DNA of 64,000 bases from Arthrobacter sp. (GCA_035466775.1 DATIUQ010000154.1:1092-65091), one strand, 5' to 3'. Counted from the stretch's first letter, positions 6,264 to 32,990 are shown. Notes: generated from the letters alone by a model not told the origin. Translations and numbers: made by a program.

Positions 6264-7424
6264 CTAGGCCAGGCGCATCGCCCCGGCCGCGGGGCGGACG
6301 GTAAAGATGTCCGGCGCGGTGTACCCGGCCCCCGCGAAGGCCCGTCCGACGGCGGCGCGCACCTCCTGCTCCGCCGCCGCCGGGGTGAGCGCGATCGCGG
6401 AGCCGCCGAAACCGCCCCCGGTCATCCGGGCGCCGATCGCCCCGGCGGCACGGGCGGTCCCGACTGCGACGTCCAGTTCGGCGCAGGAAATCTCGAAGTC
6501 GTCCCGCATGGACGCGTGGGAGGCATCCAGTAGCGGGCCGATCGCCTCCGGCCCGGTGCTTTCAAGAACCCCGACCGTCTGCAGGACCCGCTCATTCTCC
6601 GTCACCACGTGCCGGACCCGGCGGAAGGTGACGGGGTCCAGCAGGCGGCCGGCCTCGTCCAGGTCCTCCAGCCCGACGTCGCGCAGGGCCCGCACGCCGA
6701 GCACCTCGGCACCGAGTTCGCAGGAGGCGCGCCGCTCGGCGTAGCCGCCGCCGGCGTGGGAATGCGACACCCTCGTGTCGATCACCAGCGTGACCAGCCC
6801 GGCGCTTTCGGCGTCGAACGGCACCAGCCGGATGCCCTGGTCGCGGCAGTCGAGGAAGAGGGCATGCCCGGCCGCCCCGCGGAGGGACGCCGACTGGTCC
6901 ATGATGCCGGTGGGGGCGCCGACGAAGTCGTTCTCCGCGCGCTGGGTGGCCAGGACCATGTCCCCGGCGTCCATACCCGCCCCGGCGAGCTCGTTGACCG
7001 CTGTGATGACGGCGCATTCAATGGCGTGGGACGACGACAGCCCGGCGCCGCGGGGAACATCGGAGTCCAGCAACAGGTCCAGGCCGCCGGCGTCGAATCC
7101 GCGCTGCTGCAGCGCCCACAGGACACCCAGCGGATACTTGGTCCATCCCCTCGCCGTGCCGCGGCTCAGCGCACCGGCATCCACCGTGGTCAGCCCCTGG
7201 TTGCCGAAGGTGGACAGCAGCCGGATTGTGGAATCCGACCGCAGGCGGACCGCCACCCGGGCTGTCCTGTCGATCGCAAACGGCAGCACGAACCCCTCGT
7301 TGTAGTCCGTATGCTCGCCGATCAGGTTGACGCGGCCCGGGGCCTGCCACACCCCGTCCGGCGCCGCGCCGAAGACGGACTCGAACCTCCCGGCCAGACG
7401 GGCGGCGTCGAGGGGGGCCGTCAT
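6264..7424 (-). CDS. galK: Galactokinase
   Basis: APGRVNLIGEHTDYNEG, PRGAGLSSS and GARMTGGGFGG GHMP motifs; start placed at ATG 7424. Confidence 0.92.
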   Translation of the reverse strand: MTAPLDAARLAGRFESVFGAAPDGVWQAPGRVNLIGEHTDYNEGFVLPFAIDRTARVAVRLRSDSTIRLLSTFGNQGLTTVDAGALSRGTARGWTKYPLGVLWALQQRGFDAGGLDLLLDSDVPRGAGLSSSHAIECAVITAVNELAGAGMDAGDMVLATQRAENDFVGAPTGIMDQSASLRGAAGHALFLDCRDQGIRLVPFDAESAGLVTLVIDTRVSHSHAGGGYAERRASCELGAEVLGVRALRDVGLEDLDEAGRLLDPVTFRRVRHVVTENERVLQTVGVLESTGPEAIGPLLDASHASMRDDFEISCAELDVAVGTARAAGAIGARMTGGGFGGSAIALTPAAAEQEVRAAVGRAFAGAGYTAPDIFTVRPAAGAMRLA

Positions 7425-30438: not shown

Positions 30439-31413
30439 ATGACATGGCTCGTAACAGGTGGCGCAGGATATATCGGTTCGCACGTGGTCTCCGCTTTGCG
30501 AGGAGCAGGCATCCAGGCGGTGGTGATTGACTCGCTCTCCAGCGGACACCGCGAGTTCGTCCCGGAGGACGTGCCCTTCGTCCACGGCACCATCCTCGAC
30601 TCGGAGCTCGTGGCCCGGACCATGCTGGACCACGGCGTGACCGGCGTGATCCACCTTGCCGGCTTCAAATACGCCGGGGTTTCCGTGCAGGAGCCGCTGC
30701 TCACGTATGAGCAGAACGTCACCGGCACGGCCGAACTGCTGAAGGCAATGGAGCTCGCCGAGGTGGACAAGCTGGTCTTCTCCTCCTCGGCCGCCACCTA
30801 CGGCACGCCCACCGGGGACGTCGTCACGGAAGCGACCCCGACGAATCCCGAATCCCCCTACGGGGAGAGCAAGCTGATCGGCGAATGGCTGATCCGTGAC
30901 CAGGGCGTGGCGCGTGGGCTGAAGCACACCTCGCTGCGCTATTTCAACGTCGTTGGCTCCGGCTCGCCCGAACTCTACGACACGAGCCCGCACAACCTCT
31001 TCCCGATCGTGCTCCGCGCGCTGACCGCTGGCAAGACCCCGCGTATCAACGGCACCGACTACAACACGGCCGACGGCACCTGCGTGCGGGACTACGTGCA
31101 CGTCGCCGACCTGGCCACCTCGCACGTTGCGGCGGCCCAGGCCCTCGCCGCCGGTAAGCCGCTGGAACGCATCTACAACCTCGGGTCCGGCGACGGCCTC
31201 TCCGTCCGGCAGATCATGACGGCGATGGCCAACGTCACCGGAATCGACTTCGAGCCGGAGATTGGCCCGCGCCGCGCCGGGGACCCGGACCGGATCGTGG
31301 CCGACGGCACGCTGGCCGCCCGCGACCTGGACTGGAAGATGCGGCACTCCGTCGAGGACATGGTCGCCAGCGCCTACGAAGCGCAGAAGAAAGCAGCCTC
31401 CGCCGGAAACTAG
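30439..31413 (+). CDS. galE: UDP-glucose 4-epimerase
   Basis: TGGAGYIGSH, YGESK (YxxxK), LRYFNV and CVRDYVHVADLA motifs; TAGGGT-N6-ATG. Confidence 0.93.
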   Translation: MTWLVTGGAGYIGSHVVSALRGAGIQAVVIDSLSSGHREFVPEDVPFVHGTILDSELVARTMLDHGVTGVIHLAGFKYAGVSVQEPLLTYEQNVTGTAELLKAMELAEVDKLVFSSSAATYGTPTGDVVTEATPTNPESPYGESKLIGEWLIRDQGVARGLKHTSLRYFNVVGSGSPELYDTSPHNLFPIVLRALTAGKTPRINGTDYNTADGTCVRDYVHVADLATSHVAAAQALAAGKPLERIYNLGSGDGLSVRQIMTAMANVTGIDFEPEIGPRRAGDPDRIVADGTLAARDLDWKMRHSVEDMVASAYEAQKKAASAGN

Positions 31414-31436
31414 GGCCCCGGGCGCCATGCCCCCCC

Positions 31437-31963
31437 CGGGGGACATGCCCAGTGCTCACGCTCACGAATGGACTTAGTGGCTTTCTGTCCGTCCGTCACG
31501 GCAGCGGCGGGGCATGTCCAGCGCTGAGGCCGAGCTTTGGCTGCGCCACAGGGGGCATGTCCAGAGCAGCAGTTTCGGTTTGTGCTGCGTTCCAAAGGAC
31601 ATGTCCAGTTTTCGGCCCTGACGACGCCGTGTCCCGGGGGGACATGCCCAGCGGTCACGCCCAGGGACGGACATAGTGGGCTTATGTCCATCCGCTGGGG
31701 GTGCCGCGGGGCATGTCCGGCGGTTGTCCAGGCCGGTGCTGCCTCCGGCGGGACATGTCCAGTTCTCAGCCCGGACGACGCCGAGCCGCAGGGGACATGC
31801 CCAGCGGTCACGCCCACGTGCGGGCTGCCCTGAAGGGACATGCCCAGCGCTCACGCCCACGTACGGGCTGCCCCGAGGGGACATGCCCAGTGGTCACGAC
31901 CAAGAGTGGACAGAGTGGGCTTGTGTCCGTCCGTCACGGTGAGCGGGGGGCATGTCCAGCGGG
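31437..31963. repeat. Array of 11 regularly spaced near-palindromic 12-mers GG(A/G)CATG(C/T)CC(A/G)G
   Basis: Cores start at 31441, 31510, 31553, 31597, 31640, 31709, 31751, 31793, 31836, 31879 and 31948; spacings 69,43,44,43,69,42,42,43,43,69. Confidence 0.92.
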
Positions 31964-31997
31964 GGAGACGGCTTGGCCCACCCCGGGAAACGGAGGC

Positions 31998-32990
31998 TCA
32001 GCGGCGGAGCGCGCCGCGCAGCCGGGTTGGCACGGCCCGGGCCCCCTGGACGCCGCGGCGGGCGGCTTGCGCGCCCTTCCGTGCCAGCTGGTATCCGTTG
32101 TAGCGCATCTTCTTCACCGGCAGATCCCAGGTTCCGGGGTACGTGACCTCGCGCCCGCCGAACGACTTCTTGAATGCCGTGAAACCGGCCCATTTGTGGT
32201 CGGGCTGGTCCGCGGGGGCGACGCCCCAGAGGTCCACATGCTTCAGGCCCTTGTCCTTGGCATCTGCCATCAGGGTGACCAGCAGCGGAATCCCGGCGCT
32301 GAGCTTCCGGTGCGTATCGTCCAACGCGGCGTGGGCATAGGTGCGGGTATCCGCGGAGTCGTAGGCCAGCGCGGCAGCGATGGGCTCGCCCTCGAGCTCG
32401 GCGACGAAAAGCGTCGCGGCACCCGCCGGCATCAGTGAGCGCGCAACCCGGGTCAGGTACTCATCGCTCTGCGGCTTGAACCCGTTGCGCGCCGCCGTCA
32501 TGTGCAGGAACGCCAACAGTACCGAGATCTCCTCGGGGTCCTGGCTGGAGCGGAACGTCACGCCCTTCTTGTGGATGTTCCGGTACAGGTTCCGGTTCAC
32601 CGGCTTCATGTCCGCGAGGACGTCCTTGAAGTCCCGGTCCAGGTCCACGACCCAGCTCAGTTCGGGCTGCTGGTTGGCCGGGGCGGGCCGGAGGCCGCGC
32701 GTGCGCAGGACGGCGTCGGCGTCGGCAGCGGTGAAGCCGGCATCGACCGGTTCAATCCGGACGAACACCGCCCCGCAGCTGCGGGCCAGATCCCTCAGTG
32801 CCGCCAGGGCGGCGTCGAACGCGGCCAGGGAATCCGCCACCGGGCCGTAGGGTGCGTAGAGGAGTTTCCCGGCCGGGTTGCTCTCCTCGATGGCCAGGAA
32901 GCTCCAGCCCGGGCCCGAGTGCTGGTGCACGGTCCGTCCCAGGCTGCGCTGGAAACCGGCCCACTGGGGGCTCTGCAGGAAGTGGTCCAC
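31998..32990 (-). CDS. FemAB/FemX-family peptidoglycan aminoacyl-tRNA transferase
   Basis: HFLQSPQWA, YAPYGP, FVRIEP, VDLWGV and GFTAFKKSFGG motifs. Confidence 0.85.
   Translation of the reverse strand: MDHFLQSPQWAGFQRSLGRTVHQHSGPGWSFLAIEESNPAGKLLYAPYGPVADSLAAFDAALAALRDLARSCGAVFVRIEPVDAGFTAADADAVLRTRGLRPAPANQQPELSWVVDLDRDFKDVLADMKPVNRNLYRNIHKKGVTFRSSQDPEEISVLLAFLHMTAARNGFKPQSDEYLTRVARSLMPAGAATLFVAELEGEPIAAALAYDSADTRTYAHAALDDTHRKLSAGIPLLVTLMADAKDKGLKHVDLWGVAPADQPDHKWAGFTAFKKSFGGREVTYPGTWDLPVKKMRYNGYQLARKGAQAARRGVQGARAVPTRLRGALRR

Follow-up and report, generated by a model that had tools for sequence, protein, structure and literature searches.

A box-bounded tandem array between galE and a FemAB-family gene of Arthrobacter sp. 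is probably a locally amplified cluster of a REP-like dispersed repeat family

Introduction

What kind of element is represented by one short palindrome that recurs eleven times, at a few fixed distances, in the gap between two convergent genes? This question is raised by a locus of Arthrobacter sp. (GCA_035466775.1), located in the 64,000-nt window analysed here (DATIUQ010000154.1:1092-65091). The original prediction described the locus as an array of regularly interspaced palindromes and offered four readings of it: a phased protein-binding or nucleoid-organising array, an RCATGY methylation or decoy array, a processed ncRNA array, and a modular interspersed repeat family.

Several families of short palindromic repeats are known in bacteria. 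Bacterial interspersed mosaic elements (BIMEs) are composed of REP/PU sequences in Escherichia coli and its relatives, and the BOX elements of Streptococcus pneumoniae have the arrangement boxA-boxB(n)-boxC. Catalogues of REP-like repeats are poor for high-GC Gram-positive bacteria.

Results

Eleven boxes delimit ten head-to-tail modules

A motif scan of the window revealed eleven exact GGRCATGYCC cores between 31441 and 31957, each a 10-bp palindrome referred to as the box. The spacings between the cores (69, 43, 44, 43, 69, 42, 42, 43, 43 and 69 bp), the order of their three variants (A-B-B-C-A-B-C-A-A-A-B) and their location in the convergent galE-femX gap were all as originally predicted. 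The twelfth match in the window, at 6860, is unrelated, and dinucleotide shuffles of the window contained a mean of 0.70 and a maximum of 4 matches per window. AG is present directly 3' of 10 of the 11 cores and GG after the remaining one, in agreement with the predicted polarity, and the class-specific tails were also recovered, namely YGSTCACG behind all five A boxes and TT..C.GCCC.GACGACGCCG behind both C boxes that precede an A. The array, consisting of long (L) and short (S) modules, occupies approximately 90% of the 584-nt gap. The features of the locus are as follows, in window coordinates; those within the gap have no assigned strand.

30439-31413, plus strand: GalE, UDP-glucose 4-epimerase-like, the left neighbour (Epimerase PF01370, 5e-55); its stop lies 27 nt before the first box
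31423-31432: degenerate 12th box CGCCATGCCC, with 2 mismatches, 18 nt 5' of the first intact box
31437-31963: whole array, with 11 boxes that delimit 10 modules arranged head to tail, all in the same orientation, L-S-S-S-L-S-S-S-S-L
31441-31519: L module 1, a 79-nt dyad composed, in order, of box A, an arm of 19 nt, GGACTTA-N7-TCTGTCC, another arm of 19 nt and box B; repeat family D1
31510-31649: three S modules with steps of 43, 44 and 43 nt, having boxes in common at 31510, 31553, 31597 and 31640
31640-31718: L module 2, a 79-nt dyad with the best-kept long hairpin of the three; repeat families D1 and I2
31709-31888: four S modules with steps of 42, 42, 43 and 43 nt; repeat families D2 and D4
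31879-31957: L module 3, a 79-nt dyad unit; repeat family D1
31998-32990, minus strand: FemAB-family peptidyltransferase gene, the right neighbour, convergent with GalE (FemAB PF02388, 3e-24); its stop lies 40 nt after the last box

Each module closes with the box that opens the next one, and all three L modules score in the same (reverse) orientation against the family profile described below. The original prediction held that the spacers keep their length and are unlike in sequence. The second half of this claim did not hold, since the linkers are mutually homologous modules, 64-91% alike: the 79-nt units are 64-71% alike in their arms, and the 43-nt units up to 91%. The seven steps of 42-44 nt are related to one another and to the left part of the 79-nt unit. 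A 154-nt-spaced duplication inside the array is 78% alike, a 43-nt tandem repeat is found at 31792-31902 (2.6 copies, 89% identity), and an 18-nt tandem at 31416-31450 covers the region of the degenerate box. No gene was called in the array and the module steps are not multiples of three, consistent with the earlier statement that this is not a protein repeat. A scan of the galE-femX gap for intrinsic terminators and promoters gave none within the array, and no partition or regulator gene is found among the adjoining genes.

The regular interspacing of a short palindrome, and the presence of RCATGY within its core, speak for a CRISPR-like array, a processed small-RNA array or an RCATGY methylation or decoy array. 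We nevertheless regard this group of explanations as scarcely credible. The common core is only 10 bp long and occurs in three variants, as compared with the near-identical repeats of about 23-55 nt in CRISPR arrays, and the linkers show the homology given above. A distant-mode search of a phage collection gave no match to the array, and Cas1 (PF01867) was without a match in the 96%-complete source genome, in line with the absence of cas genes noted at the outset. RCATGY is present at 2420 sites genome-wide, with an observed/expected ratio of 1.08, indicating that the motif is neither avoided nor concentrated in the array; this disfavours the methylation or decoy reading. An Rfam scan of positions 30800-32600 gave no match at E up to 1, and a processed ncRNA array is further contradicted by the lack of orientation bias and of copy-specific base-pair compensation described in the following sections.

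The array belongs to a dispersed, lineage-specific repeat family

The source genome (G000; 3.69 Mb in 289 contigs, 67.8% G+C) contains 224 boxes at 132 loci, of which 33 have two or more boxes and are nearly all intergenic, and the 69-nt step recurs among them. Roughly 60 singleton boxes, most of them inside genes, are taken as background, because 72 boxes are present in the 4.4 Mb of a congener that lacks the element. The family unit is a 79-nt dyad with the arrangement box GGRCATGYCC, 19 nt, GGACATA-N7-TATGYCC, 19 nt and box, in which the central dyad corresponds to the box's own half-sites pulled apart. The ends of the unit are terminal inverted repeats, GGACATGCCC ... GGGCATGTCC, and the oriented consensus of 197 units opens with GGACATG and has no GTAG head. 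Exact 79-nt units number 36 in the source genome. These counts of cores, multi-box loci and exact units bear out the fourth of the initial readings, a modular interspersed repeat family. It had also been proposed that many scattered copies with random spacing would point to an ordinary REP family; the copies are indeed scattered, but their spacing is not random, being modular at 29-34, 42-44 and 69 nt.

A comparison with the arrays of four other genomes (G068, G004, G018 and G043) showed that the S module of 42-44 nt corresponds to an L module without the central dyad, that is, a left arm and a shortened right arm. Steps at other loci measure 29-34 nt (modules of one arm), 35, 46, 55-56 and 64-66 nt. 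In the source genome, the 42-44-nt steps are confined to the galE-femX array; in other genomes S modules are found at further loci, with 61 modules in 27 of the loci examined.

Of 61 genomes sampled from the genus, 23, counting the source genome, contained 79-nt units, and the 16 genomes examined from the order's other families contained none. In a scan of one genome per species, the hosts by name were almost all Arthrobacter or Pseudarthrobacter, including humicola, oryzae, bambusae and oxydans. A few isolated matches to the unit outside these two genera are attributable to chance. Literature on the core sequence consisted only of papers on p53 response elements, a coincidental similarity, and nothing relevant was found on Arthrobacter repeats or on DUF559/AbiEi proteins in connection with repeats. 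In the RepRanger paper, an Arthrobacter genome appears only in a table.

With regard to gene context, the multi-box loci of the source genome lie in 20 tandem, 6 convergent and 1 divergent gaps and 2 genic positions, as compared with a proportion of 20% divergent among all gaps; the gene calls were made by a crude ORF/GC3 heuristic giving 82% of the genome as coding, and these location statistics are approximate. The units usually begin 20-130 nt past a stop codon. Their orientation showed no bias relative to transcription in tandem gaps (13 versus 12), which speaks against an oriented RNA function. Within the galE-femX array and related arrays, all modules have the same orientation, with AG after the box and CGCG or GGGG before it.

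Taken together, we consider it likely, with a probability of about 0.7, that the array arose by local amplification within a lineage-specific, REP-like dispersed family of Arthrobacter/Pseudarthrobacter and represents a BIME-like cluster of that family.

Arrays change locally at sites that are inherited

The contents of the same gap were compared among relatives, with the following results.

G068: 14 boxes, L and S modules
G000: 11 boxes, L-S-S-S-L-S-S-S-S-L
G022: at least 10 boxes, the contig ending within the array
G004: 6 boxes, L-S-S-S-L
G043: 5 boxes, 35-nt linkers
G055: 4 boxes, L units and a 46-nt linker
G010: 2 boxes, a single L
G019, G003, G057 and G011: 0 boxes, short ordinary hairpin sequences

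The range from 0 to 14 boxes indicates that the array expands and contracts via tandem duplication. The flanking genes retain 80-88% DNA identity among the nearest relatives, and the gap sequences do not align. Copies at one locus are up to 96% identical, as compared with 80% at most in the arms of copies at different loci. Since near-identical copies are absent from different loci, there is no sign of recent dispersal. Among the 40 element-adjacent genes of the source genome, 34 are also found in element-bearing loci of other species, and such sharing of element sites indicates that the family is old and its sites inherited. We infer that the arrays now change by gaining or losing modules in place, the junctions falling at the boxes, which is exactly the result expected from unequal recombination or slippage between boxes.

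These data also bear on the view that the boxes are the terminal inverted repeats of a MITE, mobilised by a transposase encoded elsewhere, and that insertions, nested or side by side, gave rise to the array. The mutually inverted terminal boxes and the dispersed, intergenic distribution of the family are in favour of such an origin, which we nevertheless hold to be very unlikely. The sites are orthologous between species rather than polymorphic, the arms of copies at different loci have diverged as described above, and adjacent modules have one box in common, unlike the outcome of nested insertion. The RAYT/Y1 transposase (PF01797), the sole transposase family searched, had no match in the source genome, and controls matched in 6 of 14 genomes. 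No conserved target-site duplication was seen in the element flanks viewed, among which no filled/empty pair was close enough to align.

Another explanation is that the array is a locus-specific, phased binding platform with a nucleoid-organising, centromere-like or regulatory role. The sopC centromere of plasmid F contains a palindromic SopB site in each of its twelve repeats of 43 bp, and the 43-bp period and short palindromic core of the present array resemble it. The recurrence of a palindromic core in runs at steps of 42-44 bp, and the conservation of the boxes, which far exceeds that of the linkers, are also consistent with a platform of this kind. The original prediction of sites placed on one DNA face by a 42-44-bp period holds within the runs of short modules, but the helical phase is lost at the 69-bp steps (6.6 helical turns). 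Moreover, these boxes are found at other spacings in 33 multi-box loci, linkers of 35, 46 and 55-56 nt are used elsewhere, and the number of boxes in this gap varies among related species that have the same flanking genes. In contrast to sopC, the Arthrobacter family is chromosomal, occupies dozens of loci with mixed spacings and is accompanied by no adjacent partition genes. A phased platform at this locus therefore appears highly improbable, and no locus-specific function of the array is indicated.

Boxes and central dyad are conserved without compensatory pairing

When the modules of the array were folded as DNA, L module 2 formed a 79-nt hairpin with almost perfect pairing (-35.4 kcal/mol, z -7.3). 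L module 1 folded weakly (-18.7 kcal/mol, z -2.1) and L module 3 similarly (-18.6 kcal/mol, z -2.3), these two pairing through little beyond their boxes, and the A-A modules did not fold (z -0.2). Pairing was further assessed with 197 distinct units from many genomes. The arms were no more complementary within a copy (7.45 of 19 positions) than between copies (8.18 of 19), showing no compensation; all-pairs covariation and mutual information over the unit columns revealed no helix; and real units folded no better than left/right chimeras (-39.4 versus -38.9 kcal/mol, p 0.53). These three null results indicate that the hairpin potential is a property of the family consensus and is not kept copy by copy.

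Sequence conservation was markedly uneven along the unit. In the orthologous L modules of the galE-femX gap from five species, the arms were 0.58 identical, as compared with 0.92-0.93 for the boxes and central dyad. Between loci within the source genome, the corresponding values were 0.48 for the arms (with a maximum of 80% and a shuffled expectation of 28%) and 0.88 for the boxes and dyad. It can be inferred from this pattern that the boxes and dyad are preserved by something that reads their sequence rather than by pairing.

The results on folding bear on a further alternative, in which the repeats are orphan REP-like sequences: an old, immobile, selfish or neutral family whose boxes are kept because hairpins at 3' ends are useful as terminators or mRNA stabilisers, whose arrays vary by slippage alone, and in which the nuclease gene described below happens to lie in a repeat-rich hot spot. 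This alternative accords with the lack of near-identical copies at different loci, the position of the units behind genes and their rarity in divergent gaps, the family-level hairpin potential of about -39 kcal/mol per 79 nt, and the ordinary hairpins carried in the galE-femX gap by relatives without units. However, in view of the absence of compensatory arm pairing, selection on structure cannot account for a conservation that is limited to the boxes and dyad, and the unfolded A-A modules and the equal folding of units and chimeras are likewise contrary to it.

A nuclease gene framed by boxes is a candidate partner of the family

RAYTs were recognised through repeat clusters that frame their genes. 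We looked for genes framed by box clusters in the source genome and found the following candidate.

G000:C160:5665-6576, minus strand: candidate partner gene, AbiEi_4 winged helix and REase_MTES_1575/DUF559-type nuclease domain

Of 2870 predicted genes, just this single-copy gene and one other have two or more boxes within 200 nt on each side, and the bracket of the candidate gene (5 + 5 boxes) is the densest in the genome. The other doubly framed gene, encoding an alpha-amylase/pullulanase, was judged incidental, as was an inositol-monophosphatase-like gene between two clusters on contig C180. The C160 protein has 269 residues and, in Pfam, matched AbiEi_4 with 29.7 bits (above the cut-off) and MTES_1575 with 30.6 bits (below the cut-off). 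A sequence search of the PDB with the nuclease profile gave no match. In Foldseek searches with the AlphaFold model (pLDDT 89.4), the N-terminal 190 residues matched the AbiEi antitoxin 6y8q (E 4e-5), and the C-terminal domain matched Vsr (1vsr), the DUF559 protein NGO0050 (3hrl) and the homing endonuclease I-Bth0305I (3r3p), each with a probability of 0.99. The E/D/H motif residues of the nuclease are invariant in 17 sequences.

Orthologs with at least 64% identity were found in 20 of the 61 genomes of the genus, all 20 of them repeat-positive. The 38 repeat-negative genomes have no ortholog and contain only homologs of about 50% or 35% identity. Shared descent confounds this co-occurrence, since the positive genomes probably form one clade. 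In all 20 ortholog-bearing genomes (17 loci and 3 more), boxes are present on both sides of the gene. Among 16 ortholog loci viewed, most have a box within a few nt after the annotated gene end, and about half have a box directly before a DnaA-box-like motif (TTTTGCACATAGC and variants), approximately 75 nt 5' of the ATG. The gene is present and framed in G009 and G062, which contain only 2-3 exact 79-nt units genome-wide, and a lineage-specific 78-nt unit variant of G071, GGGCATAAC..GTTATGCCC, also lies beside that genome's own copy of the gene. The homologs of about 50% identity in a sister clade are located in the syntenic position, between copies of a related palindrome, GCGCAGGGACWGYCCCTGCGCA, which is unamplified there. 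Units without a C160 ortholog were found in G042, a complete genome with 5 exact units and 136 boxes, and in G024, which has 24 units and is only 86% complete.

We also examined the flanks of other members of the nuclease family in the source genome, defined by matches to AbiEi_4, DUF559 or MTES_1575, several of them below the curated cut-offs. Repeats with at least three distant loci were represented in a flank of 8 of these 13 loosely defined members, as compared with 35 of 300 control genes, and only 3 of the 300 control genes had repeats represented in both flanks. The repeats at individual members were as follows.

C33:13727-14564: flanked on each side by identical direct repeats of 28-34 nt, with 14 copies in the genome
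C74:10561-11503: flanked on each side by a 59-nt hairpin, which has at least 12 other loci
C4:16876-17721: flanked on each side by a 71-nt hairpin
C193 and a pseudogene on C26: adjoining hairpins of about 100 nt, GCTCCTGCCCAGTTAC...GTAACTGGGCAGGAGC

The units of G042 would be expected if the repeats were orphans and the nuclease gene a bystander. The two-sided framing in every ortholog-bearing genome and the excess of other family members adjoining other repeats are, on the other hand, hard to call chance, and we consider the orphan explanation unlikely as a whole. The repeats are best regarded as an undescribed REP-like family without a RAYT, for which the box-framed winged-helix/Vsr-like nuclease is a plausible candidate partner.

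Discussion

The array between galE and femX is by itself ordinary, being an amplified dispersed intergenic repeat and neither a cas-less CRISPR nor a special binding platform, and it cautions against inferring function from regular spacing. Its closest resemblance to BIMEs lies in clusters made up of a short imperfect palindrome and a handful of constant-length linker motifs, represented here by the steps of 29-34, 42-44 and 69 nt, and in the extragenic location of the clusters, mostly behind genes, at many loci of one lineage and with up to about a dozen units per locus. In contrast to BIMEs, whose units alternate in orientation, the Arthrobacter units are arranged head to tail with a common box; their sequence is unrelated, they contain a second, split palindrome, and the host is a high-GC actinobacterium. 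BOX elements are similarly modular, intergenic and hairpin-forming, with an internal module of about 45 nt in variable number between end modules. They differ in sequence and host, and the Arthrobacter modules are all bounded by the same 10-bp palindrome and have a candidate partner gene.

The resemblance to REP/REPIN-RAYT systems is of particular interest with regard to the nuclease gene. Both comprise short extragenic palindromes that are lineage-specific and present in tens to hundreds of copies; both associate a dispersed hairpin-forming repeat with a single-copy gene for a DNA-acting enzyme framed by that repeat, the enzyme being a candidate in the present case; and several distinct gene-repeat pairs are found in one genome. 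The differences are that the source genome has no Y1/HUH transposase (PF01797), that the Arthrobacter repeat has no GTAG/CGTC head, and that the candidate partner, an AbiEi-type winged helix joined to a Vsr-like PD-(D/E)xK nuclease, has an unrelated fold.

Within the preferred reading of a locally amplified REP-like family, arrays would lengthen and shorten by unequal recombination or replication slippage between boxes, and the boxes would be kept intact by a reader of their sequence. The most likely reader would be the C160 AbiEi-type winged-helix/Vsr-like PD-(D/E)xK nuclease, whose own gene is framed by boxes. Through its winged-helix domain the protein would bind to the palindrome, at a minimum as the operator of its own gene, and the nuclease domain might nick or cut at boxes, leading to conversion and duplication between them. 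At the galE-femX locus, the cluster probably stands in for an ordinary bidirectional terminator hairpin and may serve as hairpins of transcript ends. We offer only tentatively the more specific proposal that GGRCATGYCC represents the recognition sites of the nuclease, and that binding together with nicking or cutting keeps the copies alike and drives their duplication into arrays. Conservation of the box could equally reflect another protein or a constraint on DNA structure. Slippage between 10-bp boxes requires no nuclease.

If it is true that the enzyme reads and acts on its repeat, bacteria or selfish genes would have evolved, independently, a second way of maintaining palindromic repeat families, and the pair would be the actinobacterial equivalent of the REP/RAYT partnership, based on an unrelated enzyme. 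On a more practical level, the fast-changing natural tandem arrays could be used as strain markers in soil Arthrobacter.

Repeats around Nuclease Paralogs and Homologs

Five sites in the genome carrying the window (G000), all outside the window, hold genes or a pseudogene with domain matches of the kinds seen in the C160 gene, the box-framed candidate partner with AbiEi_4 winged-helix and Vsr/DUF559-like nuclease domains:

G000:C33:13600-14700, AbiEi_4/DUF559 paralog region
G000:C193:1-1300 and G000:C26:6070-6810, ~100-nt hairpin repeat family
G000:C74:10440-11575 and G000:C4:16700-17840, two more MTES_1575-type genes

The C33 paralog, which shares ~35% identity with the C160 gene, lies between identical direct repeats of 28-34 nt, GCGGCGTGTCCGTGTCAATGTGCCCCC, present in 14 copies in the genome, and a DnaA-box-like TTGTCCACATAGC lies upstream of it. 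A second hairpin family of ~100 nt, GCTCCTGCCCAGTTAC...GTAACTGGGCAGGAGC, with ~42 half-sites, occurs in tandem on C193, where it adjoins another DUF559 paralog, and on C26, where it adjoins an AbiEi_4 pseudogene containing an in-frame TGA. The genes on C74 and C4 each have their own hairpin repeat on either side, one of 59 nt, CGACTGCTCCGTAACTGCCG...CGGCAGTTACGGAGCAGTCG, found at at least 12 other loci, and the other of 71 nt, TTTCGACGGTCC...GGAACCGTCGAA.

Congeners lacking exact copies of the dispersed 79-nt unit encode a ~50% homolog of the nuclease:

L161-L168 (G014, G006, G061, G072, G076, G005, G001, G013), ~50% nuclease homolog loci

At these loci, the homolog is framed by the palindrome GCGCAGGGACWGYCCCTGCGCA, which has GGAC..GTCC half-sites in common with the Arthrobacter box and only a few copies per genome. 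Upstream of the homolog lie a gene that ends in ...NRARAKA and a hairpin, AGAATGCCACCGG-N-CCGGTGGCATTCT, which is perfect and resembles a terminator.

In the G071 lineage the unit exists as a 78-nt variant whose boxes are rich in GGGCATGCCC and whose central dyad is GGGCATAAC-N-GTTATGCCC. Since the same variant flanks G071's own nuclease gene (L169), the gene-flanking and dispersed copies may have undergone concerted evolution.

Other Occurrences of the Box

Distant from the array, the window holds a lone GGGCATGCCC match (6860-6869), a count consistent with the background of ~16 boxes per Mb in an element-free congener. A full-text literature search with the box words returned p53 papers only. 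Coincidentally, the Arthrobacter box fits the textbook p53 half-site, RRRCATGYYY.
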